This document shows, in pieces, positions 11,036-26,491 of a stretch of 32,000 nucleotides of DNA; within the stretch, counting starts at the first letter, position 1, and the number at the start of each line of letters is the position of its first letter. The stretch comes from Candidatus Kuenenia stuttgartensis (GTDB lineage Bacteria; Planctomycetota; Brocadiia; Brocadiales; Brocadiaceae): the NCBI RefSeq assembly GCF_900232105.1, contig NZ_LT934425.1, forward strand, positions 1,890,001 through 1,922,000, in the 5' to 3' direction. A program made the position numbers and the translations under genes. The notes below the pieces were generated by a model that was not told where the DNA came from, searched no databases, and saw only the letters and a list, made by a program, of their open reading frames with translations.

Positions 11036-11857
11036 ATGAAAAAGTGCGTTATTAATGCCGATGATTTTGGAAAATCTGATGCCGTGAATGTATGCGTGGA
11101 AACAGCGTTCAGGGAAGGTGTTTTATCCAGTGCCAGCATAATGGCGGGGGGGCTGGCGTTTCCCGGAGCCTGCAGCATTATTAAGGGGAACCCCGGACTT
11201 GGCGTGGGCATTCATCTTACACTGCTCCAGGGGCATTCGGTGTTAAAGCATAAGGATATTCCCGGACTTGCGGATGTTAAGGGAAATTTTTGCGAAAACC
11301 CTTTCTTTGCAGGGATGAATCTTTTCTTTAAAAGGGGAATTGCGGATCAGATACGACGCGAAATCAGGGCTCAAACAGAAAAGGCTTTAGAGTCGGGAAT
11401 ATCTCTGGGGCATTTGGACGGTCACTTAAACATACATCTTCATCCATCGGTAATATGGCATGCAGTGGAATTATGCAAGGTATATAACATCCCCTATATC
11501 AGGATACCCCGTGAGCCTCTATTTATGAATTTGTTCGTATCGGGGAAGAAGTTGTTGTATAAAATAAGCCATAAAATTATTTTTGAAATACTCGCCCGCA
11601 GGGCAGCGCCGTTACTAAAGGAATACGGCATCGGACATATTCCCCTGGTAATAGGCCTTCTGGAATCGGGGAATATTACGGCTGATTACCTGAAGAAGAC
11701 CCTTCCGGGAATTGATAAGACGCCTTTTGAAATATATTGTCATCCGGAGCCAAATAATGCTGACTTCAGCGCACTTATGGATAAGGATGTAAAAAAATGT
11801 ATTGTGGAAAATGGTATCAGGATTATTACTTATAGAGAAATAAAGGTGCAACAATGA
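11036..11857 (+). CDS. hpnK: YdjC/ChbG-family deacetylase, hopanoid biosynthesis protein HpnK-like
   Basis: 273 aa. The N-terminus CVINADDFGKSDAVNVCVETAFREGVLSSASIMAGG...GVGIHLTL fits the YdjC pattern (DDFG...N.gi......G.l.s.s.m). Clustered with hpnI/hpnJ. Confidence 0.8.
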   Translation: MKKCVINADDFGKSDAVNVCVETAFREGVLSSASIMAGGLAFPGACSIIKGNPGLGVGIHLTLLQGHSVLKHKDIPGLADVKGNFCENPFFAGMNLFFKRGIADQIRREIRAQTEKALESGISLGHLDGHLNIHLHPSVIWHAVELCKVYNIPYIRIPREPLFMNLFVSGKKLLYKISHKIIFEILARRAAPLLKEYGIGHIPLVIGLLESGNITADYLKKTLPGIDKTPFEIYCHPEPNNADFSALMDKDVKKCIVENGIRIITYREIKVQQ

Positions 11858-12225
11858 TAAAAACGTTCGGGTTCCTGTTTTTCATGCTCATAGCGCAAGC
11901 CTTCGGGCACACCTTCTTGAGCAAAGGGATGGTTGGGATAGGAGAACTTACCGCATACAGTGTAAGGGAAATACTTTTTTACGCCCTGGTTGTCATGAGA
12001 AATCCATGGATCGTTTTCGGGATATTTTTTCATGCGATCGGATTTTTTTCATGGATGTATATTCTTTCTTTCTCGAAATTAAGCCTGGTGCTTCCACTGA
12101 CGTCTCTCTGTTATATAATGACCGCCTTTTTAGCTACATTCATGCTCGGAGAAGAGGTTAGCCCTCTCAGGTGGGCAGGGACCGCAGTGATAGTATTTGG
12201 CGTTTACCTTGTTACTCAGGGTTGA
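11854..12225 (+). CDS. Small 4-TM DMT/EamA-like membrane protein (ArnE/ArnF-size), translationally coupled to hpnK
   Basis: 123 aa. The ATGA overlap at 11854-11857 joins the hpnK stop to this start. An EamA half-domain-like ending is present (LPLTSLCYIMTAFLATFMLGEEVSPLRWAGTAVIVFGVYLV). Confidence 0.7.
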   Translation: MIKTFGFLFFMLIAQAFGHTFLSKGMVGIGELTAYSVREILFYALVVMRNPWIVFGIFFHAIGFFSWMYILSFSKLSLVLPLTSLCYIMTAFLATFMLGEEVSPLRWAGTAVIVFGVYLVTQG

Positions 12226-13345
12226 TTTGAGCAATCGTTCCGTCTTTGCCAAGGACAAATTTTTTATTTTTCCAGGTAATTTTGTTGCCGCAAAAACTCA
12301 ATAACCATGTATAAAATCCCAAAAATTCCTGTATAGGAACGAGCAAATACACCCATGAAAATGGAATCTTGCTCAGCAGGGTTCCTGTTAGGGTAATGCT
12401 AAGAAAACGCAGAATGATTGCCGTGCCAAAAAGAGAGATAGCGGGGAGAGAAAAAGAGGTAAAAAAACACAATAGCAGCGACCAGACAGAACCAAAAGAT
12501 ATGCCAAATAAAAAATATCCGACAGGTTCTGAGACCCTGTACGTCTTGCATAATCGTAATTGACGTACAAAATAATTCTTAAAATTCGATTTCCCGACAA
12601 CGGTATTTACCAGAATTGTTGAGAGCGTAACGGGATTTCCGTTTTTACTGATTTTGTTTCCGAGATGGTAATCATCCGCCAGCATATTGCCTAACGCTTC
12701 GTACCCGCCAATCGATTCCAGCGACTGTTTTGTAAGAAACATTGAAGCCCCAAAACCGTAATTTATCCCATGAAAAATTTTTGCCATACACACGCCCTGG
12801 AATATATCAGAGAGTATGGTGATAACCTCGAGGTGCCCCCCGATCCCTTCGTTGTGTATTCCCCGATACAAATTGGTGACCATGCCGGCGTTCTTTATGT
12901 GGGTCAACGATTGCAGGAAGTCCTGTGGTACTAATACATCGGCGTCGGAAATATTAATGATATCATACCGTGCATGTTCCGTAAGGGTAATGAGTTTCCC
13001 CACCTTTTCGTTTGAATATTTCTTATGGTTGCTGCACAGGATTATTTTGCAGATGCCGGGAAATTCATTTTCCAGCTTTGTTAAAATGCCATAGGCGGGA
13101 TCGTCTTTTGAACTGACACCAAACAGAATTTCTATGGGAATGGCTCTTAAATCAAGGAAGGATTTGATATTGTTGTATAAATTGTATACCTCGCCGGTAA
13201 TGGGTTTTAAAAAACTGATCCCCTCGAAATGAGGCATCTCTGTTTCCTCTCCCTTCTCTCTGAATACCGTCAAAGTACATAAAAACGCAGCAATATAATA
13301 GGTAAACGATAAGAATGTGAGTATGGAGAAGCAATATACGGCCAT
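12212..13345 (-). CDS. hpnI: GT2 (ceramide-glucosyltransferase-like) glycosyltransferase HpnI-like
   Basis: 377 aa with an N-terminal TM, then ISFLKPITGE, a DAD motif (NISDADVLVP) and C-terminal TM helices. Its 3' end overlaps the convergent DMT gene by 14 nt (12212-12225). Confidence 0.75.
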   Translation of the reverse strand: MAVYCFSILTFLSFTYYIAAFLCTLTVFREKGEETEMPHFEGISFLKPITGEVYNLYNNIKSFLDLRAIPIEILFGVSSKDDPAYGILTKLENEFPGICKIILCSNHKKYSNEKVGKLITLTEHARYDIINISDADVLVPQDFLQSLTHIKNAGMVTNLYRGIHNEGIGGHLEVITILSDIFQGVCMAKIFHGINYGFGASMFLTKQSLESIGGYEALGNMLADDYHLGNKISKNGNPVTLSTILVNTVVGKSNFKNYFVRQLRLCKTYRVSEPVGYFLFGISFGSVWSLLLCFFTSFSLPAISLFGTAIILRFLSITLTGTLLSKIPFSWVYLLVPIQEFLGFYTWLLSFCGNKITWKNKKFVLGKDGTIAQINPE

Positions 13346-15135: not shown

Positions 15136-15252
15136 ATGAAAACAAAGATGACCATGGTTTATTGGAAGGGTGAAAAATATTGGCCTGGAAAACTTCTTGA
15201 GCGCCCGGAAATTATGACACAGGGCGAAAGGCGTTTGTCCGTCAGCTTATGA
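15136..15252 (+). pseudogene. HicB/UPF0150-like antitoxin N-terminal stub (38 codons)
   Basis: MKTKMTMVYWKGEKYWPGKLLERPEIMTQGE then unrelated RRLSVSL*. As I remember it, the family pattern (...YW...kyWlGkLle.PeimTQGEtleEL...) continues about 30 aa further. It overlaps the tail of the HNH ORF on the other strand. Confidence 0.4.
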
Positions 15253-16007
15253 ATAGCATGACATCTAGTTACTGTATCATCATAACTCGCACTAAATGGA
15301 ACGATGTGGCAAGCATCCACCATTGATACAGAAATGGTAGCATCTATTCTCATTCCAGAAATACAACAAGTGTTGTTGTAGATTTTTGGTATTTCTCTTT
15401 TAAACAAACAACATCTTAAAAAAATCCCTTCCTCATTCTTTTGCTCCATTAAGTTCTTTATTTCTTGCCTGTATTCTTCCGATGGTTCGTTTAAAATTTT
15501 ATTCTCAATATCATTAAATAGTTTTTGATGCCCACCTGACGAATTACCAAAATTGCATTAAGTTTCAGGGAAGTATTTATCCAATAAAAACTGCTGTAAT
15601 ATTCCATTACTTTTTTTATCATTCATTAAAGCAAGTAAATCTTCATCTGTAACAGCAAAATCAACTGCTGCATTTAGGTTTGCAAAACTTCGCAGGGATG
15701 CAGAGAGTTGAAGAATATTTTCAAAGCCCGGTTTTGGAATTAGTTTCCAAAACTTATCGCTTGTTAAATGATAAAATGGTAATGCAAATCGGCAATCGTG
15801 ATTTGAAATAACCAATAAACTCCAATTGGATTTGAATAAAGCAACTAATTCGGGACTGATGTAAATTCTTTGGGAGTTGTTTATTCCGATCTGAAATGTT
15901 TGTAATATAGAAAGTAGAAGAATGGGTTTATGCGGAGCAATGCCGTGTGCTCTATCTATTCTTAGTTTTTCAAATGCTCTGAGATATTTCTGTAATGTTT
16001 CTTGCAC
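15159..16007 (-). pseudogene. HNH endonuclease (HNH_2-type with N-terminal recognition-like domain) interrupted by an in-frame TAA
   Basis: ORFs 15558-16007 and 15159-15449 are in the same frame (16007 and 15449 both = 2 mod 3). One TAA (15558-15560) separates them, and sense codons continue after it (CNFGNSSGGHQKLFNDIENKILNEPSEEYRQEIKNL-MEQKN...). The HNH core is CCISGMRIDATISVSMVDACHIVPF. The C-terminus looks degenerate. Confidence 0.7.
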
Positions 16008-16012
16008 ACTTG

Positions 16013-16516
16013 TTATGTTGTTATTTGCGTTAGGGATTGTAGCGGAAATCCTTTTTGCAGCGCTAACAGGTCTTGGATTAACTCCACATCCTTTGGCTCC
16101 TGCTTGCAGGACTTTTTAAGCAGGCCTGCCTCTTGTTTGAATTTTTCTTCTTGTTTGCTCACTTCAATTTGAGTTTTGAATATGTGATTATAAATTTGGG
16201 ATACTTTGGTTTTGAAAAAACTATCTCTGAACCAATAGTATTGAATCAGCACCATTTCCTGATGTGTGATTAATTCAATGCATTCGGTAGCCTGTATTGT
16301 TCGCTGTGCTTTTAAAATTCGTTTTAAAATTTCAACTCGTGTTTCAAATTTGTAAGGACCCCAAAAGTTTTCTTTTATTTCACAGTTCCGCCTGCGTTTA
16401 TCTCTCCAGATTTCGGGGTTGTCTCTTGTTTCAATTAAAAAGTTTCTGATGTCTGCCATGGATTGTAACCCTGAACCCGCAGGGAGTCGTGTAATGTTTA
16501 TGCTGAATAGCTCCAA
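16013..16516 (-). CDS. Hypothetical protein (167 aa; likely start at MADIRNF, 16459); possibly a fragment of a larger gene
   Basis: Its stop lies 5 nt from the HNH start. I recognise no motifs with certainty. WGPYKFETRVEILKRILKAQ...LITHQEMVLIQYYW vaguely recalls the C-terminal region of DndC/PAPS-reductase-associated proteins. That is recollection only. Confidence 0.4.
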   Translation of the reverse strand: MELFSINITRLPAGSGLQSMADIRNFLIETRDNPEIWRDKRRRNCEIKENFWGPYKFETRVEILKRILKAQRTIQATECIELITHQEMVLIQYYWFRDSFFKTKVSQIYNHIFKTQIEVSKQEEKFKQEAGLLKKSCKQEPKDVELIQDLLALQKGFPLQSLTQITT

Positions 16517-16606
16517 GGGTTTTCCATTGGGATTTTGCTTTCTTGAATTTGTTTCGTATTTCGTGCTTCGTATTTTTTATCTCATGCTATGCTGGCTTGC
16601 AAAAAA

Positions 16607-17731
16607 TCAGTCTACATGTGCCATTCCACCTAAATGGCTTTGCAGGGTGTCATACGACGCGTAACATTTCCTGGCGAAACGTACCTGCCAATAAAAGCCT
16701 GCCTTTTCCTTCGATAGTATTTCAAAATGTACCTTGCGTTTCTGCAAATGATCCATCATCCGTTGAATGTTTTCCTCTTCACGAAAACGGAGAAGAAACT
16801 CTTCCCTGATAAGTTCTCCGTCCGCAGCCTTTTTCACACTTTCGTAAATGGGTTTTAATAATGCTTCACCCAGGGCAGTAAAATCTTTAGGGTTTAATTC
16901 ATGGGATTGCTCATAACGATACATAGCTGCCCGGATTATACGATGAGTAAAGTATTCTGACGCTATTTCCGCCATGAGTGGAGCGTTGCAGCGTATATCG
17001 CGCAGGCATGACCCGAAAGTAACATATTTCAGGGTCTTTTCTTCTTTACACGTTGGTTTGAAAACAATACCCTCGCTGCCTGCATCATCTAATTCTTTAA
17101 CAATCTCTTTTAGGGCAAGGATATCTGCAGAAGAAAAACGCCCGAATCGCCTTACGGTAGGCATGCCATATTTATCGAAGATTCGTAACCGCTCTTCAAC
17201 AGGAAGGTTTCGAGAAGTATTTTTCAGCATTAAATCAAAGGCAAAAAAGCGTATATCTTCCTTAACGTAAGGGGGACATTCAATATTGTAAGGATTATCG
17301 GGACCCGCAAATTCCCCGCAAACAATTAGGTCGGGGTGATCGGCAAATATTTTTTGTATATCCAGAAAATCAGCTATCCTGTCTGTAGAAAAGGGGCAAA
17401 CATATCCACCTCGTGAAAAGACGAGTACTTTTCCCCGGATACAAACAATTCTCACATTATAACCATCAACCTTTTCTTCAACATAAAAAGGTTGCGCATA
17501 CGCATTCTTTAATCCGTTCTCCAGATGCAATATTCTTGCAATCCTTGGAAAGTCAAAAATAATGCCCGCACAGGTAACGATTGAGCATTTTCCCAAAGGG
17601 CCGACCTTTCTCATTATCCGGTAATAGGAGATGCCCTCATACTCTTCTCTGGCAACATCATGTTTGTCAATAGATTCCTGCCACCGGTCTTCAGAAATGC
17701 CTGCTTTTTTGATGACTTCGGTTAATGACAT
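16607..17731 (-). CDS. ATP-dependent RNA ligase, Rnl3 / Pab1020-like
   Basis: 374 aa. The nucleotidyltransferase motifs appear in order: I EEKVDGYNVR (Lys87), III IRFFAFDLM, IV SEGIVFKP, V TLKYVTFG. Size and N-terminal extension match the archaeal homodimeric Rnl3 type. Confidence 0.75.
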   Translation of the reverse strand: MSLTEVIKKAGISEDRWQESIDKHDVAREEYEGISYYRIMRKVGPLGKCSIVTCAGIIFDFPRIARILHLENGLKNAYAQPFYVEEKVDGYNVRIVCIRGKVLVFSRGGYVCPFSTDRIADFLDIQKIFADHPDLIVCGEFAGPDNPYNIECPPYVKEDIRFFAFDLMLKNTSRNLPVEERLRIFDKYGMPTVRRFGRFSSADILALKEIVKELDDAGSEGIVFKPTCKEEKTLKYVTFGSCLRDIRCNAPLMAEIASEYFTHRIIRAAMYRYEQSHELNPKDFTALGEALLKPIYESVKKAADGELIREEFLLRFREEENIQRMMDHLQKRKVHFEILSKEKAGFYWQVRFARKCYASYDTLQSHLGGMAHVD

Positions 17732-17957
17732 AGTGAAATATCCGAAAAAAAAGGGGTTAAAAATAGCGGCGGAATGAAGCCTCTGTCTGATAAAAAGACC
17801 TTGAAAATATTCGATACATGATGTTACTTAACACCAAGCCTTTTATTCAAGGCAAAACTAGTGTATAATTTCAGCAAAACAAGTATTTTGCCCCCTTGTT
17901 TTTATTGTAACCTCAATATTTGTAAAAGGTTAAATTTATTGTCCGTTGTTTTTAATG

Positions 17958-17986
17958 TTGACTTGAAAAAAACATATTCGTATAAT
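17958..17986 (+). promoter_or_regulatory. Near-consensus sigma70 promoter (TTGACT-17 nt-TATAAT)
   Basis: ttgact at 17958-17963, a 17-nt spacer, tataat at 17981-17986. It points toward the DHH gene (start 18201). Confidence 0.55.
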
Positions 17987-18018
17987 TGGCTAACGTTTTG
18001 TTGAATTATCAGGATAGT

Positions 18019-18056
18019 GTCCGGTAAAAAAATTTTTTACCGGACTCGCTTTTTTT
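18019..18056 (+). terminator. Terminator-like palindrome plus T7 tract inside the leader (possible attenuator or short RNA end)
   Basis: gtccggtaaaaaa-a-ttttttaccggac (18019-18045), then tcgc and TTTTTTT (18050-18056). It lies about 30 nt downstream of the predicted TSS. Confidence 0.45.
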
Positions 18057-18200
18057 ACAATCCCCTTGTTCCTCCCCCTTGTTCACTCACGTCTGCCATG
18101 CCCGGCATGGATAGAGGCAGGTTTTCTTACGAGGGATTTTGCTGCTTGCTTACTGCGTTGCGTTATGAAATAGGATTCAATCTTTTAAGGAAATAAAATT

Positions 18201-19676
18201 ATGTATATAATCCTTGGTTGCGATTGTGTTGCTAGGGCGTTGGTTAAAAATTTAAGCAAATCCGGTGAAGAGGAAATACTTGTAATAGACAAGGATGAAC
18301 AGGCCTTAAATGCCTTAAAAGAATTTAATATCACCACGATAACCGCAGATATTTATGACTACAACTTCAGTTCTTTGCCGGGGAAAGACCCCGTAGCCTT
18401 TATTATTTTACAAAAAAATCCTAAAGAAAACCTTGCCTTAATAAAACGCATCAAGGAATTATTCCCTGATAAATTTGTTTTAACGCAAGTGACAGACGAT
18501 AAAGAATCCTCTGAATCAATGGCTGCCGGAGCCGACCGTGCTGTTGAATCCGTCAGGATACTTTCGGATGCGATTCTCAATGAACTGGAATCTGCAAAAC
18601 TAAGAAGGTCTGCCTCGAAACTGGTTAAAGTTCTCCGGGAGGCAACGAATAACGGATTGGCTATTTTTTTACAGAACAATCCCGACCCCGATGCTATTGC
18701 CTCCGGGCTTGCGCTCAAACGTATTGCCGGGGAATACGGCATTAAATCAAAGATTTATTATGGGGGGAACATTGGCCATCAGGAAAATAAGGCGCTGGTC
18801 AATTTGTTGCAAACAGACCTTATCAGACTCAATACTCCCGACGAATCGCTAAGTATTATTAACTCTGTTGATAAAATAGCGTTAATAGAAGCCTCTATAC
18901 CTTCGAAAAATAATATATTGCCGCCCGATACGAACGTTCATGTCATTATAGATCATCACCAAACGGATATTAGCCTTGTAAAAGGGGAATTTGTTGAAAT
19001 AATGCCTGGTATTGGCGCCAATTCTTCCATTATGACAAGGTATTTAAGGTATCTGGGAATAGCGCCGGACGTTCCGCTTGCGACCGCACTTCGCTATGGT
19101 ATAAGAGTAGATACCAGTGGATTTACAAGGAACACAACCACTGAAGACCTTGACGCGGCAGCCTATCTTTCTCCATTGGTAGATGTGGGGCTCTTAAACC
19201 AAATTGAAAATCCCCCCATGAGCGCAGAAACGATGGATATCATTGGAAGAGCAATAAGAAACCGTGAAGTACGAGGGGCATACTTAACCTCATTCGTAGA
19301 ATTCATAACCGACCGCGATGCGCTACCGCAGGCAGCCGAACTGATGCTGCAAATGGAAGGTATTTCTACGGTGCTCGTCTTCGGCATTGACAAAGACAAG
19401 GTCCAGTTATCGGCGAGGAGTGTAGATTCCAGGATTAATCTCGCGTCATTATTGCAAAAAGCATTTGGCTTTATGAACGCGGGTGGGCATGCTACCATGG
19501 CTGCAGGCTGTATTGAACTTGGCATATTTGGAGATGTTACAGATAAAAGATCGCTTTCGAAAATCACTTTTGATGCTGTCAGAAAGAAGTTTTTCTCTGC
19601 CGCCGGAGTGGATATAGAGAAGAGAGAAATACCGGATGATCTGGAATCGATAATGAATTATAGCGTGAAAGATTAG
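18201..19676 (+). CDS. DHH/DHHA1 phosphoesterase (NrnA/RecJ-like) with N-terminal degenerate TrkA-N-like domain
   Basis: 491 aa. MYIILGCDCVARALVKNL...ILVIDKDE is Rossmann-like, with the GxGxxG motif degenerate. DHH motifs: NNPDPDAIAS, VIIDHHQTD. DHHA1: MNAGGHATMAAG. Confidence 0.8.
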   Translation: MYIILGCDCVARALVKNLSKSGEEEILVIDKDEQALNALKEFNITTITADIYDYNFSSLPGKDPVAFIILQKNPKENLALIKRIKELFPDKFVLTQVTDDKESSESMAAGADRAVESVRILSDAILNELESAKLRRSASKLVKVLREATNNGLAIFLQNNPDPDAIASGLALKRIAGEYGIKSKIYYGGNIGHQENKALVNLLQTDLIRLNTPDESLSIINSVDKIALIEASIPSKNNILPPDTNVHVIIDHHQTDISLVKGEFVEIMPGIGANSSIMTRYLRYLGIAPDVPLATALRYGIRVDTSGFTRNTTTEDLDAAAYLSPLVDVGLLNQIENPPMSAETMDIIGRAIRNREVRGAYLTSFVEFITDRDALPQAAELMLQMEGISTVLVFGIDKDKVQLSARSVDSRINLASLLQKAFGFMNAGGHATMAAGCIELGIFGDVTDKRSLSKITFDAVRKKFFSAAGVDIEKREIPDDLESIMNYSVKD

Positions 19677-19711
19677 TTATCTTTAATTTGTTAAAAAGGA
19701 GAAAAAAAGGA

Positions 19712-20560
19712 ATGAAAAAGGGCTATTTAGTGGTTGCCGCGTTAATAGGCATGTCGTTTTCCCTCGCATCTTGCGTTTCCACGCAAACACAGGTGGAAGA
19801 AGAGGCGCCGGAAGTAAAGATAGAAGTTGTGCCTTATGACGCTCCTGCGGTAGAAACGGCGGAACCTGTTGCTGAACCAGTGGAAATAGAAGGGATCGTT
19901 GAAGAGGAAGAAATAACGGAAGTGGCTCCTGCGGAAGAAACAGTAGAAGCTGTTCCGGAACCGGTAGAAGCAGAAACAATAGAAGAAGCGGCAGAACCTT
20001 TAGGGGTTAAAGTACCGGAAGAAGATGTTGTGACAGAGGAGAAGAAAGAAGAAGTCGTGACAGAAACACCTTCTGCCGCAAAAACGGAGGTGTCTGCTGC
20101 AAAAACAAGCACCTGTTCCATATGTGGCAAAGTCGTGGGAGAAAATCATATATGCGGCATTACTACCTATTGCAGTCAATGCGGAAGGGAAGCAGGTTCC
20201 GGGCATATTTGCGGCACAACGCAATTTTGCCATGAATGCGTCGAAGAAGTTGGACCTAATCATATCTGTGATTTGACATTTTTTTGTCCCGATTGCAAAA
20301 AAGAGGTGGGAGATGGGCATATTTGCAACGTAACAACACTTTGTCTGAACTGCGAGGAGGAAGTAGGCGCTGGACATATTTGTGATTTAACGTATTATTG
20401 TTACGAGTGTGAAAAAGAAGTCGGGGATGAACACATTTGCGGCCTTACCCATTTCTGCTATGCCTGCAAGGAGGAGGTGGGCGAGGGTCACAAGTGCGGT
20501 GTAACGTATTTTTGTTTTGAATGCGAAAAGGAAGTAAGTAAGGACCACAAGCACGAGTAA
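19712..20560 (+). CDS. Exported lipoprotein with acidic E/P/V/A-rich spacer and eight tandem CxxC-x7-HxC repeats
   Basis: The ATG at 19712 gives MKKGYLVVAALIGMSFSLASC (lipobox LASC). About 110 aa of low-complexity acidic sequence follow. A 19-aa unit is then repeated 8 times (CSICGKVVGENHICGITTY, CSQCGREAGSGHICGTTQF, ... CFECEKEVSKDHKHE). Confidence 0.8.
   Translation: MKKGYLVVAALIGMSFSLASCVSTQTQVEEEAPEVKIEVVPYDAPAVETAEPVAEPVEIEGIVEEEEITEVAPAEETVEAVPEPVEAETIEEAAEPLGVKVPEEDVVTEEKKEEVVTETPSAAKTEVSAAKTSTCSICGKVVGENHICGITTYCSQCGREAGSGHICGTTQFCHECVEEVGPNHICDLTFFCPDCKKEVGDGHICNVTTLCLNCEEEVGAGHICDLTYYCYECEKEVGDEHICGLTHFCYACKEEVGEGHKCGVTYFCFECEKEVSKDHKHE
20114..20557 (+). repeat. Intragenic tandem repeat: 8 x 57 nt (last unit short) encoding the CxxC-x7-HxC unit
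   Basis: The first Cys of each unit falls at ORF-track residues 143, 162, 181, 200, 219, 238, 257 and 276, an exact 19-aa period. The DNA units have diverged while the protein motif is kept. Confidence 0.85.
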
Positions 20561-20903: not shown

Positions 20904-21392
20904 TCACTTTTCAATGATGAGTAACAATCCGCAGTCAGGGCATTCTTTCGTATCAGCACGAATACTATAACCGCAAGCAGGGCATCTTCCCAGCGATTCC
21001 CAGTCTTTAGAAGCCTTGATTTCAGGATACTTTTGTGTATGGAATTCCTCAATACAGTTATGTGCGGCGAGTGCATCCCCTTTTGTTGTCAAGAGAAGAT
21101 ACCGGCATCCACACTTTCCCGTACTACAGCCAGGGGCTAAGACAATTTTAGAAAAAAACCCTTTTCTTAAAAGTAAATCCGATAACTCACGAACGCTTTC
21201 TCTCCCTTCTTCCCTGATGGTGACCAATTCATCGTGGTGAGACGCGGGAATGTCCGGCTTTTTCTTTCTTTCTTTTTCAACCTCTTCCGGCATTATCAGG
21301 AGAACTCCGCAGTCGGCGCATAAAGAAATATGCGCATAATACTCGGATTCGCATTTTGGGCAAATTTTTACATTTTCAGTAGTCATGAACAA
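20904..21392 (-). CDS. Double zinc-ribbon protein with central DUF2007-like domain
   Basis: 162 aa. N-terminal CPKC-x13-CADC, C-terminal CPAC-x11-CPDC, and a middle segment ELVTIREEGRESVRELSDLLLRKGFFSKIVL. Confidence 0.65.
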   Translation of the reverse strand: MFMTTENVKICPKCESEYYAHISLCADCGVLLIMPEEVEKERKKKPDIPASHHDELVTIREEGRESVRELSDLLLRKGFFSKIVLAPGCSTGKCGCRYLLLTTKGDALAAHNCIEEFHTQKYPEIKASKDWESLGRCPACGYSIRADTKECPDCGLLLIIEK

Positions 21393-24787: not shown

Positions 24788-26491
24788 TATAGTATTACCC
24801 TGTAAAAACTTCTTTTTTTGTAAGTTTTCCTTCGTGTTCTTTGTACTACTATCCATCAATTTCTTGTTTTTTATGCGTGTTTTTCATGCCGCCATTTCCG
24901 TAAGTGCTTTAATATCAAGGGCTGAAGCGGTCATCAGTGAACAAGAGAACTTCTGGCCTTTCTCCGTCAAAACATAGCGGTTGGCCCTCGGAACTTTGCG
25001 GATTAGACCGTGTGCCCGCAGCATCTTTATCCGTCGGGTCGTTCGTCCGGAATATTTCTTTTGCTGATCCTTGCCGGATTGTTCGGATTCCCGGTAAAGC
25101 CACTTACGCAAATCATGGTTGCGGAATCCATTTATCGCGTTTTCGCCTTTGGACAGGAACATCAGCATCTGGTAATCATCCTGCTGCCAGGGATTCAAAC
25201 CTCGATACCTCTTGCCCTCTTTGACAACCTTGTTACAAGCGCTGCTCACCACTTCTTTCAGTTTCTCCTCTACCTGAGCCGCCGCCAAAGCATCCCCATA
25301 ACGATCATTGCATTGTTGGCTCACCTCACACCGTCGATGAAGATCGCTTACGCCCTTACGCATCTTCTGCCATGACGCCGGTTTGCCTTCATCATCATTG
25401 GGACTCCGAAAGACCTTAAAGTCCCGCGTATTATTGATCGTTGTCTCAATACGCAAGAGACTACCGCTCTTGTTATACATCTTCACTGAATTATAATTCA
25501 CACTGTGCTTGACCCGTATACCTTCATAGCGTCTTCGATAGTCGCTGATAACCTCATCAGGGGCAGCGCCTGCAAGGTTACGCCTACCCAAATACTTCAT
25601 CACCGAAGAACTGTCGCAAACCCGCATCGCATGATGAACAAACGATGGAAACAACTCCTCCAATGCCTCAACCGATTTAAACATGATGTCCGTCGCCCAC
25701 TCCGTCTCATCCGCAGACCAGTAATACTCCGGTTCCAACGGACGAAGAATCTGCGACAATGCCGGGCAACTGCCCAACGCAAGCCCGTTCAGCAGCTTCG
25801 CCCAGTCAGTCTTAAGCTGCTCATGGAGCAGAACCTGCGCAGCCGCAATATCCTCTATACGCACAAAACAGTTGCCGTCCTTAACATAATCAATACCTTG
25901 CTTCTGAAGTTGCCGCTCCAGCCAATGACGACCATTGAGACAAATGAAAATATTAAACGGCGCCCAACTCTGGATACGAACATGACCAAAACCAAACACT
26001 GGATCGTTAAAATAATGATACACAAAGACACACTTGCGGGGCGCCATTACCAACTCGAGCTTCTTGCTGGCCTTGTTGCCCTTGACCATCGGCGCAATAC
26101 AAGGCTCTACCACACTCAACAGGCAGATGGAACCTTCCGTAATCCTCTTATCCGCCGCGATCTGGCGAGCCAACTTCTCCTTATCAACACCGCTGCTCAT
26201 CAAATACCGCACCTCGATACCCAAATCTTTCGCCCGCGATTCACAACTGTCTCGCACCTGTGCCGTAAGCCCATTGACCCAACCGGAAAAATCCTTAAGC
26301 AGAATTCTCGCTTGGTTCATGAATGTTCCCATCCCACGCTCACTGGCCAACCACCGCAATGTCCCGCGAAAACGAATCCTGTCCAGACCGCTTATTGCAC
26401 CCACGATCCTGTCTCGATATAATTCCATCAACTTATTCATAAGTAGTGTCCTCCAAATTGTCTGATTACTATTTACGAGGATACTACTATA
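24788..26491 (-). mobile_element. Tentative IS-like single-gene insert (about 1.7 kb) bounded by imperfect ~20-bp inverted repeats
   Basis: tatagtattaccctgtaaaa (24788-24807) compared with the reverse complement of 26471-26491, tatagtagtatcctcgtaaat (about 17/21 with one gap). Codon usage differs from the neighbouring genes. I found no target-site duplication. Confidence 0.3.
24884..26440 (-). CDS. Conserved-looking hypothetical protein (518 aa) with C-terminal winged-helix-like tail; possible novel transposase or mobile-element protein
   Basis: Long uninterrupted ORF. The C-terminus RTTRRIKMLRAHGLIRKVPRANRYVLTEKG is wHTH-like. I recognise no catalytic motif. Lys codons run AAG:AAA about 15:2 in the first ~290 codons, whereas neighbouring genes are AAA-dominant. 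Confidence 0.7.
   Translation of the reverse strand: MNKLMELYRDRIVGAISGLDRIRFRGTLRWLASERGMGTFMNQARILLKDFSGWVNGLTAQVRDSCESRAKDLGIEVRYLMSSGVDKEKLARQIAADKRITEGSICLLSVVEPCIAPMVKGNKASKKLELVMAPRKCVFVYHYFNDPVFGFGHVRIQSWAPFNIFICLNGRHWLERQLQKQGIDYVKDGNCFVRIEDIAAAQVLLHEQLKTDWAKLLNGLALGSCPALSQILRPLEPEYYWSADETEWATDIMFKSVEALEELFPSFVHHAMRVCDSSSVMKYLGRRNLAGAAPDEVISDYRRRYEGIRVKHSVNYNSVKMYNKSGSLLRIETTINNTRDFKVFRSPNDDEGKPASWQKMRKGVSDLHRRCEVSQQCNDRYGDALAAAQVEEKLKEVVSSACNKVVKEGKRYRGLNPWQQDDYQMLMFLSKGENAINGFRNHDLRKWLYRESEQSGKDQQKKYSGRTTRRIKMLRAHGLIRKVPRANRYVLTEKGQKFSCSLMTASALDIKALTEMAA

Follow-up and report, generated by a model that had tools for sequence, protein, structure and literature searches.

An archaeal-type Rnl3 RNA ligase gene and a divergent TrkA_N-DHH-DHHA1 phosphoesterase gene in Candidatus Kuenenia: probable members of an ancestral gene island of anammox bacteria

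RNA ligases of the Rnl3 (Pab1020-type) family have been described together with HARP (PIN_5, PF08745), a protein-only RNase P family (PMC6380272). In the survey of Seshadri and Gopalan (2025, mBio), 665 of 751 HARP-positive genomes also carried the ligase, and 80% of the bacterial HARP-ligase cases were co-localised, typically in convergent orientation (PMC12153264). HARP and Rnl3 were found enriched in organisms from harsh environments and a stress-related role was proposed; HARP was dispensable in archaea that also have an RNA-based RNase P, and knockout of the ligase gave no growth phenotype (PMC12153264). A HARP protein from a planctomycete metagenome-assembled genome, PbHARP, has a solved structure and cleaves the 5' leaders of precursor tRNAs (PMC9051087). 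The term 'DHH' has 0 occurrences in the HARP-ligase survey and its supplements (PMC12153264). Enzymes with the domain order TrkA_N-DHH-DHHA1 are represented by PyaPDE of Pyrococcus yayanosii (Jin et al.), which is described as an adenine-specific phosphodiesterase that converts cyclic di-AMP (c-di-AMP) via pApA to AMP (PMC12699388). Here, a stretch of 32,000 nucleotides (nt) of Candidatus Kuenenia stuttgartensis (contig NZ_LT934425.1, positions 1,890,001 to 1,922,000; below called the window) was analyzed, in which an Rnl3-type ligase gene stands back-to-back with a gene for a TrkA_N-DHH-DHHA1 phosphoesterase, here called the DHH protein.

With moderate confidence, these are considered to be two intact, separately transcribed, archaeal-type genes of an ancestral anammox island of DHH, Rnl3 and HARP genes, and not a repair or defence pair. 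In the island as proposed, the TrkA_N-DHH gene is divergent from Rnl3 and Rnl3 is convergent with HARP; the island would have been inherited vertically and would have a housekeeping role. Judged by its family, the ligase would be adenylylated at K87 and transfer AMP to an RNA 5'-phosphate, after which attack by a 3'-OH would seal or circularise single-stranded RNA. Its functional partner, as far as known, would be HARP, presumably encoded elsewhere in the Kuenenia genome, since the 3' end of the ligase gene now borders on a rearrangement or mobile-element junction. From its architecture, sequence and fold, the DHH protein would belong to the GdpP/PyaPDE class of Mn2+/Co2+-type phosphodiesterases and break down c-di-AMP and/or pApA, or very short RNAs, to 5'-nucleoside monophosphates.

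The ligase gene (16607..17731, minus strand) encodes 374 amino acids (aa), comprising an N-terminal domain, a nucleotidyltransferase core with the nucleophile K87 and a Pab1020-type C-terminal domain. The TIGR01209 model matched the full length of the protein (residues 9-374) with 343.3 bits at a cut-off of 136.9, and matches were also obtained to the Pfam families RNA_ligase (PF09414, 96.8 bits) and Lig_C, the Pab1020 C-terminal region (PF18330, 119.6 bits, residues 250-369). DNA-ligase models gave 17-28 bits only, and an assignment as DNA ligase was rejected. The closest solved structure was Pab1020 (2VUG, E = 5e-79, aligned over residues 4-374), followed by 8UCE, 3QWU and MthRnl. The translation contains EKVDGYN (K87), FFAFDL (162-167), EGIVFKP (220-226) and LKYVT (234-238), and in an alignment of 12 diverse homologues, including Brocadiales, Thermocrinis and Pyrococcus, the positions K87 (KxDG), E140, F163/F165/D166, E220-G221-K225 and K235 were invariant. 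A sequence-only reading of the locus had described an Rnl3 ligase of ~375 aa, with motifs I, III, IV and V in this order and of a type uncommon in bacteria. This description was borne out, except that Rnl3 naming has FFAFDL as motif IIIa and the CGEFAG segment, which holds the invariant E140, as motif III; the number of ligase-positive bacterial genomes is 164 among more than 1 million prokaryotic genomes (PMC12153264). By these sequence matches, the ligase is a genuine Rnl3-family enzyme. Homodimerisation and ATP-dependent circularisation of single-stranded RNA would be expected from the ~40% identity to enzymes with this activity (PMC4797309). The ratio of nonsynonymous to synonymous substitution rates (dN/dS) of the ligase within Kuenenia was 0.10-0.12, that of the DHH protein 0.02-0.07, and both genes are therefore under strong purifying selection. 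To our knowledge, archaeal C/D-box sRNAs are not found in bacteria, so they cannot be the natural substrates of the ligase of the window. For both proteins the top database matches were 99% identical and came from Candidatus Kuenenia, followed by K. hertensis, Brocadia, Jettenia, Loosdrechtia and Scalindua.

The DHH gene (18201..19676, plus strand) encodes a soluble polypeptide of 491 aa with the domains TrkA_N, DHH and DHHA1 in this order. Pfam assigned TrkA_N (52.8 bits, residues 2-115) and DHHA1 (40.7 bits, residues 360-439), and the DHH domain itself (residues 154-283) was found with 26.6 bits, just below the cut-off of 28.1. In alignments of 14 and 37 homologues, the residues DPD (D162/D164), D251-H252-H253, D304, R372-D373, R406 and G428-G429-H430 were invariant, so that the family assigned earlier as DHH/DHHA1 was confirmed by domains and catalytic motifs; motif II has Glu for Asp, as in some archaeal homologues. 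The remark that the Rossmann domain is degenerate was right for Brocadiaceae: the TrkA_N motif GxGxxG is a non-canonical GCDCVA in the window and is likewise degenerate in Brocadia and Loosdrechtia, whereas Scalindua and archaeal homologues retain the canonical GCGxxG. GxGxxG belongs to the TrkA_N domain, and phosphodiesterase activity is not known to depend on it.

The best solved sequence relatives of the DHH protein were catalytic domains of GdpP (5XSI, E = 1e-9), and its N-terminal domain matched 3LLV, titled 'exopolyphosphatase-related protein'. Its AlphaFold (AF2) model had a confidence (pLDDT) of 87.9. Foldseek placed GdpP first (E = 6e-21), followed by the pApA phosphodiesterase of T. 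maritima (TmPDE) and then by the nanoRNases NrnA, Rv2837c and DhhP; in both sequence and fold, family II pyrophosphatases and RecJ ranked below the dinucleotide phosphodiesterases. Some homologues are annotated as family II pyrophosphatase; this was rejected for the DHH protein, which had 34.8 bits against an NCBIfam cut-off of 283 and the lower fold rank. The protein is therefore predicted, from sequence and model, to be a phosphoesterase of the cyclic/linear-dinucleotide or nanoRNA class. This architecture is that of a large archaeal family: at E <= 1e-20 it numbered 4,816 proteins, which came from ANME-1/Methanophagales, Syntropharchaeia, Methanocellales and Methanosarcinales, and at E <= 1e-30 there were 275 representatives. 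The earlier proposal of an RNA end-processing partner of the ligase does not agree with the PyaPDE-like architecture and the GdpP and pApA-hydrolysing relatives, and when the DHH protein and the proteins encoded near it were scanned with Pfam and NCBIfam, domains of a polynucleotide 5'-kinase, a 2',3'-phosphatase or a 3'-phosphate esterase were not found.

As had been noted before, the two genes are divergent and 469 nt apart; the base composition around them is unremarkable. A putative ligase promoter (17821..17850, minus strand) lies ~80-90 nt upstream of the ligase ATG and consists of a -35 box TTGAAT (17850-17845), an 18-nt spacer and a -10 box TAACAT (17826-17821). In 31 Brocadiaceae loci the block CTTGAAA-N17-GTAACATC, which reads as TTGAA(A/T)-N18-TAACAT, is found directly upstream of the ligase, and by its consensus and conservation it is plausibly the ligase promoter. 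On the other side, the predicted DHH promoter (17958..17986, plus strand) has the form TTGACT-17-TATAAT with 11 of 12 consensus matches, and TTGAC(T/A)-N17-(G)TATAAT faces the DHH gene in the window and in 44 of 44 Brocadiales loci with a complete intergenic region. A conserved block, AAGGTTAAATTT (17926..17937, plus strand), lies ~20 nt upstream of the DHH -35 box, is invariant in the Brocadiaceae alignment and may serve the DHH promoter as an UP element or as a site for an activator; Brocadiaceae share the block AAGGTTAAAWTT just upstream of this promoter.

The conserved promoter blocks of the two genes are ~110 nt apart, and where the pair has been split up, each block has stayed beside the gene that it belongs to. 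The ligase-side block is retained next to ligases that lack the DHH neighbour, in B. sapporoensis and, as a near-variant, in B. pituitae (loci L018 and L023), and in a complete Brocadia genome with a split pair (L096) the DHH promoter and the block AAGGTTAAA had been relocated along with the DHH gene. Therefore, the sequence of the spacer is read as two autonomous back-to-back promoters and not as the one shared divergent control region proposed earlier.

The 5' leader of the DHH gene contains a perfect 12-bp hairpin (GTCCGGTAAAAA/TTTTTACCGGAC) with a T-run (18019..18055, plus strand), flanked by A- and T-runs, 30 nt downstream of the DHH promoter and 145 nt before the start codon. The hairpin occurs once in the window and lies within a ~150-nt insertion that is specific to Kuenenia, gives the DHH transcript its long leader and is not conserved in other genera; the leader fold had a z-score of -2.1. 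It resembles an intrinsic terminator or attenuator, and could be an attenuator or an insertion scar. No Rfam family was matched at gathering thresholds in the whole window, nor at E <= 1 between 17650 and 18300, and with the hairpin being Kuenenia-specific and single-copy, a conserved non-coding RNA or riboswitch in the spacer was rejected.

The gene order was compared in the best 80 loci of a ligase survey that took one genome per species and found Rnl3 relatives in 219 species. Brocadiales contributed 55 of the 80 loci, including one that is mislabelled (L055), and the rest were from Desulfobacterota/'Deltaproteobacteria', Nitrospirota, Thermocrinis and Thermococci. Of the 52 evaluable Brocadiales loci, 45 have a divergent DHH gene next to the ligase, with both families, Brocadiaceae and Scalinduaceae, among them, but a TrkA-DHH neighbour was present in none of the 14 evaluable non-Brocadiales ligase loci. 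Conversely, neither Rnl3 nor HARP was found at any of 90 other TrkA-DHH loci (896 kb in total), nor at six archaeal TrkA-DHH loci that were inspected individually. Co-conservation of the two genes elsewhere, on which the sequence-only reading depended, thus holds inside the anammox order and stops there. The locus L055 (CAXMPV010000113.1) is a contig from a 'Thermodesulfobacteriota' bin on which a Scalindua-like ligase (53% identity) and DHH gene (51%) stand in the anammox arrangement; it is probably mis-binned and from Scalinduaceae.

Neighbour-joining trees of the ligase and of HARP recovered Brocadiales as a clade with 100 and 96% bootstrap, respectively, and a clean split between Brocadiaceae and Scalinduaceae, which is consistent with vertical descent from an anammox ancestor. 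With a bootstrap of 62% at this point, the trees of the best 80 loci do not distinguish between bacteria (Nitrospirota/Desulfobacterota) and Thermococci as the nearest relatives of the Brocadiales ligases, and no donor lineage of the ligase, archaeal or other, emerged from them; the 'all bacteria' split is the trivial complement of the Thermococci in the sample.

In most loci the gene directly downstream of the ligase is HARP, in convergent orientation and abutting or overlapping the ligase 3' end. Among the evaluable Brocadiales loci 41 of 52 have it, as do 14 of 25 others (Desulfobacterota, Nitrospirota and Thermococci), and the Brocadia protein matched solved HARP structures with E = 1.5e-78. 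Both neighbours of the ligase are present in 33 loci, only the DHH gene in nine (including Kuenenia), only HARP in six and neither in one, and the complete Brocadia genome mentioned above retains its DHH gene away from the ligase; the trio can therefore be broken on either side without loss of a gene. In Table S1 of the HARP-ligase survey, co-localisation is recorded for Brocadia fulgida, B. sapporoensis, KSU-1 and Scalindua japonica, and Ca. Kuenenia stuttgartiensis is entered as HARP-positive and ligase-positive but not co-localised (PMC12153264). In agreement with this table, no PIN_5 homologue was found anywhere in the 32-kb window. The real and already published partner of the ligase is HARP, which has been displaced in Kuenenia. 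In the main text of the survey the Pfam family of HARP is given as PF09745, probably a typographical error; PF08745 is used in the earlier literature and here.

The position of HARP in most other anammox genera is occupied in the window by a rearrangement junction (16517..16606). The DNA resembles that of the nearest Kuenenia locus (L001, 93% identity) only as far as 16552, 55 nt past the ligase stop codon. Beyond it lie a dndC gene truncated at its 5' end to the last 167 codons, the C-terminal third (16013..16516, minus strand; NCBIfam and PADLOC matches), and a phosphorothioate (PT)-dependent restriction endonuclease gene on the minus strand that is split into a 149-aa N-terminal part (15558..16007) and a 96-aa HNH part (15159..15449). 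These remnants are absent from the loci L001-L003; at the same spot L001 has a tyrosine recombinase (11413-12309 of that locus), and K. hertensis has DUF72, Tae4 and topoisomerase genes. Because they are strain-specific, lie beyond the breakpoint and are replaced by other genes in other Kuenenia, these Dnd genes are debris left at a hot spot of rearrangement and not partners of the ligase. PADLOC matched only the DndC and HNH fragments and none of the ligase, DHH, HARP and Cys-repeat (see below) proteins, and membership of the pair in a defence system was rejected, the pair being inherited vertically across the order. Decayed defence genes are thus indeed found downstream of the ligase, as the sequence-only reading had it, but its surviving countermeasure island is not.

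Several observations weigh against the ancestral housekeeping island as the full explanation. The adjacency of DHH and ligase genes has outlasted a reshuffling of the surrounding 10 kb in both families, longer than neutral synteny is usually kept, which suggests selection for the cluster. A link between DHH and Rnl3 genes may also be recurrent, as in Thermococci a different, stand-alone DHH/DHHA1 gene lies 2-5 kb from Rnl3/HARP. As to the proposed substrate, the link to PyaPDE is one of shared architecture. No diadenylate cyclase (DAC domain) was found in a Pfam scan of the 32-kb window, no relevant literature on c-di-AMP or diadenylate cyclases in anammox bacteria or planctomycetes was found, and neither a diadenylate cyclase nor another c-di-AMP gene is among the recurrent neighbours of the archaeal homologues (loci L087-L176). 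c-di-AMP is therefore kept as a presumed substrate. The neighbours that do recur at these archaeal loci are genes for an MptE-like, pterin diphosphokinase-like protein (29 loci), a PRC-barrel protein (28), a radical-SAM + HHH protein (17), an S2P/CBS protease (15), Thg1 (10) and Nnr (9), and none is diagnostic of a function. The genes pabB/pabC are found near the cluster in Scalindua (L039) and in Kuenenia (L001), a possible pterin/folate connection.

The main rival explanation, that DHH, Rnl3 and HARP form a single RNA-processing module, is considered unlikely. In such a module, HARP would cut the 5' leader and leave a 5'-phosphate, the DHH nuclease would trim ends or clear leader fragments, and Rnl3 would circularise the product. 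The three genes are the only ones within 10 kb on either side of the ligase that are common to Brocadiaceae and Scalinduaceae, all three are kept together in the 33 loci with both neighbours, the published HARP-Rnl3 model calls for 'other nucleases' in 3' trimming (PMC12153264), and nanoRNases of the NrnA type come close to the DHH protein in structure. These points are met by the absence of the pairing from all evaluable loci outside the order, by the separate, autonomous promoters and by the splitting of the trio in both directions without gene loss; in addition, the characterised enzyme of the same architecture is an adenine-specific phosphodiesterase of c-di-AMP (PMC12699388).

An NrnA-like DHH gene near Rnl3/HARP in Thermococci is a further argument for the module. 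In L066 (5130-11758), and also in L062, L068, L069, L079 and L080, Rnl3/HARP stands at the end of a conserved, co-oriented gene run that encodes a Brix-like protein, a prefoldin-like protein, a 326-aa DHH/DHHA1 protein with GGGH, a Zn-ribbon protein, a 359-aa protein without a Pfam family and a protein with Alpha_Helical and tRNA_bind domains. This DHH protein is of a different subfamily, however, and its gene is part of a conserved run of ribosome-biogenesis/tRNA genes; in L062 the segment with ligase and HARP is apparently inverted relative to the run, and a simple inversion of this segment accounts for the arrangement there. The Thermococci neighbour was also rejected as the characterised pApase, since PyapApase is encoded in a sulfate-assimilation cluster and has GGGK where the neighbour has GGGH. 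In its general form, the proposal would be that DHH enzymes are the missing trimming or clearing nuclease, or a nucleotide-signal input, of the HARP-Rnl3 pathway of RNA 5'-processing and circularisation, bacteria included, because a DHH gene is the third conserved component in anammox bacteria and an NrnA-like one lies near Rnl3/HARP in Thermococcales; this, too, is regarded as doubtful.

Less probable still is a regulatory coupling without shared chemistry. According to this alternative, the DHH protein degrades c-di-AMP as a signal of osmotic or K+ stress, and the back-to-back placement co-ordinates the DHH gene with the ligase and HARP genes through a compact divergent promoter region. The PyaPDE-type architecture with its GdpP-like catalytic domain, the stress-related role proposed for HARP and Rnl3 from their enrichment in harsh environments (PMC12153264) and the short distance of ~110 nt between the conserved promoter blocks would fit. 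Against it, the blocks segregate with their own genes on splitting and no shared operator is evident, the window gave no match to a diadenylate cyclase, a c-di-AMP receptor or a c-di-AMP riboswitch, and the nucleotide-binding motif of TrkA_N is degenerate in Kuenenia.

That the locus is an RNA-repair pair, an end-processing enzyme with a 5'-P/3'-OH ligase, as the surviving core of an RNA-damage defence island, is suggested by the adjacent phosphoesterase and ligase genes and by the decayed DndC and PT-restriction genes adjoining the latter, but is very improbable and already largely refuted by synteny: the Dnd remnants are strain-specific and lie beyond the breakpoint, other Kuenenia have an integrase or the DUF72/Tae4/topoisomerase genes at that place and other genera have HARP, PADLOC is negative for the conserved genes, the DHH protein lacks kinase and 2',3'-phosphatase domains, and the pair is inherited vertically across the order within ordinary chromosome (hopanoid genes, transketolase, proC).

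An ancestral island of DHH, Rnl3 and HARP genes, reduced in Kuenenia by the loss of the HARP neighbour, therefore remains the favoured explanation. Directly after the DHH gene, a Cys-repeat lipoprotein is encoded (19688..20560, plus strand; likely true start ATG 19712). It has a signal peptide with a lipobox (LASC), an acidic E/V/P/T-rich linker and seven full and one partial 19-aa repeats of the form C-x2-C-x7-H-x-C, and no Pfam family above cut-off was found in it. In Brocadiaceae this gene comes after the DHH gene, the linker of its product being PE-rich and much longer in Brocadia, but it is not found in this place in Scalindua or in the split Brocadia genome L096. The lipoprotein would be exported, its gene is probably co-transcribed with the DHH gene, and it may bind metal.

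The remainder of the window is ordinary chromosome, with a hopanoid cluster that encodes HpnJ, a transporter of the MMPL type, YdjC and a glycosyltransferase of family GT21; transketolase, ProC and two surface proteins with DUF11/CARDB are encoded there as well. A protein of 162 aa with a double zinc ribbon (20904-21392, minus strand) is conserved beside transketolase in the nearest Kuenenia locus; it matched the NCBIfam model 'zinc ribbon-containing (seleno)protein DG' with 77 bits, below the cut-off of 130. A 518-aa open reading frame (24884-26440, minus strand) had no Pfam match at E <= 0.001, is overlapped by long antisense open reading frames and lies in the GC-richest part of the window.

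The ligase family, the presence of the ligase in Kuenenia and the link to HARP are already on record, and archaea have provided a characterised enzyme of the DHH architecture. Two points seem to be new: a TrkA_N-DHH-DHHA1 gene stands back-to-back with Rnl3/HARP across the whole anammox order, and in Kuenenia the adjacency of HARP was lost at a mobile-element breakpoint. The advance is incremental and a modest lead for the open HARP/Rnl3 question: a third gene that is kept with HARP-Rnl3 across the order is a concrete candidate for assays on shared substrates, and it nominates anammox enrichments for sequencing of circular RNAs. Should the DHH protein instead be no more than a c-di-AMP phosphodiesterase, it would give a first hint of archaeal-type c-di-AMP signalling in planctomycetes.

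Among known systems, the repair systems Pnkp-Hen1, RtcA/RtcB and T4 Pnkp-Rnl1 resemble the locus in that a phosphoesterase gene lies beside an RNA ligase gene. Unlike in these, the window has no 5'-kinase, 2',3'-phosphatase (HD- or calcineurin-type) or methyltransferase, and its two genes are divergent with separate promoters, form no operon and show no association with defence or mobile elements. The DHH protein has its TrkA_N-DHH-DHHA1 architecture in common with PyaPDE, a likeness of architecture, and has GdpP and then TmPDE as best solved matches, with the metal-binding and GGH motifs intact. It differs from this class by the degenerate GxGxxG of TrkA_N in Kuenenia and Brocadia and by Glu instead of Asp in motif II, and it is without the PAS/GGDEF domains and the membrane anchor of GdpP. 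The ligase shares ~40% identity over its full length with Pab1020, MthRnl and KOD1Rnl (2VUG, 5D1O and 8UCE; also 3QWU), together with the three-part architecture, all catalytic motifs and the length; the host is a mesophilic anammox planctomycete, whereas those enzymes come from (hyper)thermophilic archaea. The published HARP-Rnl3 pair (PMC12153264) has a convergent arrangement that is present in most anammox genera: in the window HARP is not adjacent, and in anammox genomes the TrkA_N-DHH-DHHA1 gene joins this pair as a third conserved neighbour.

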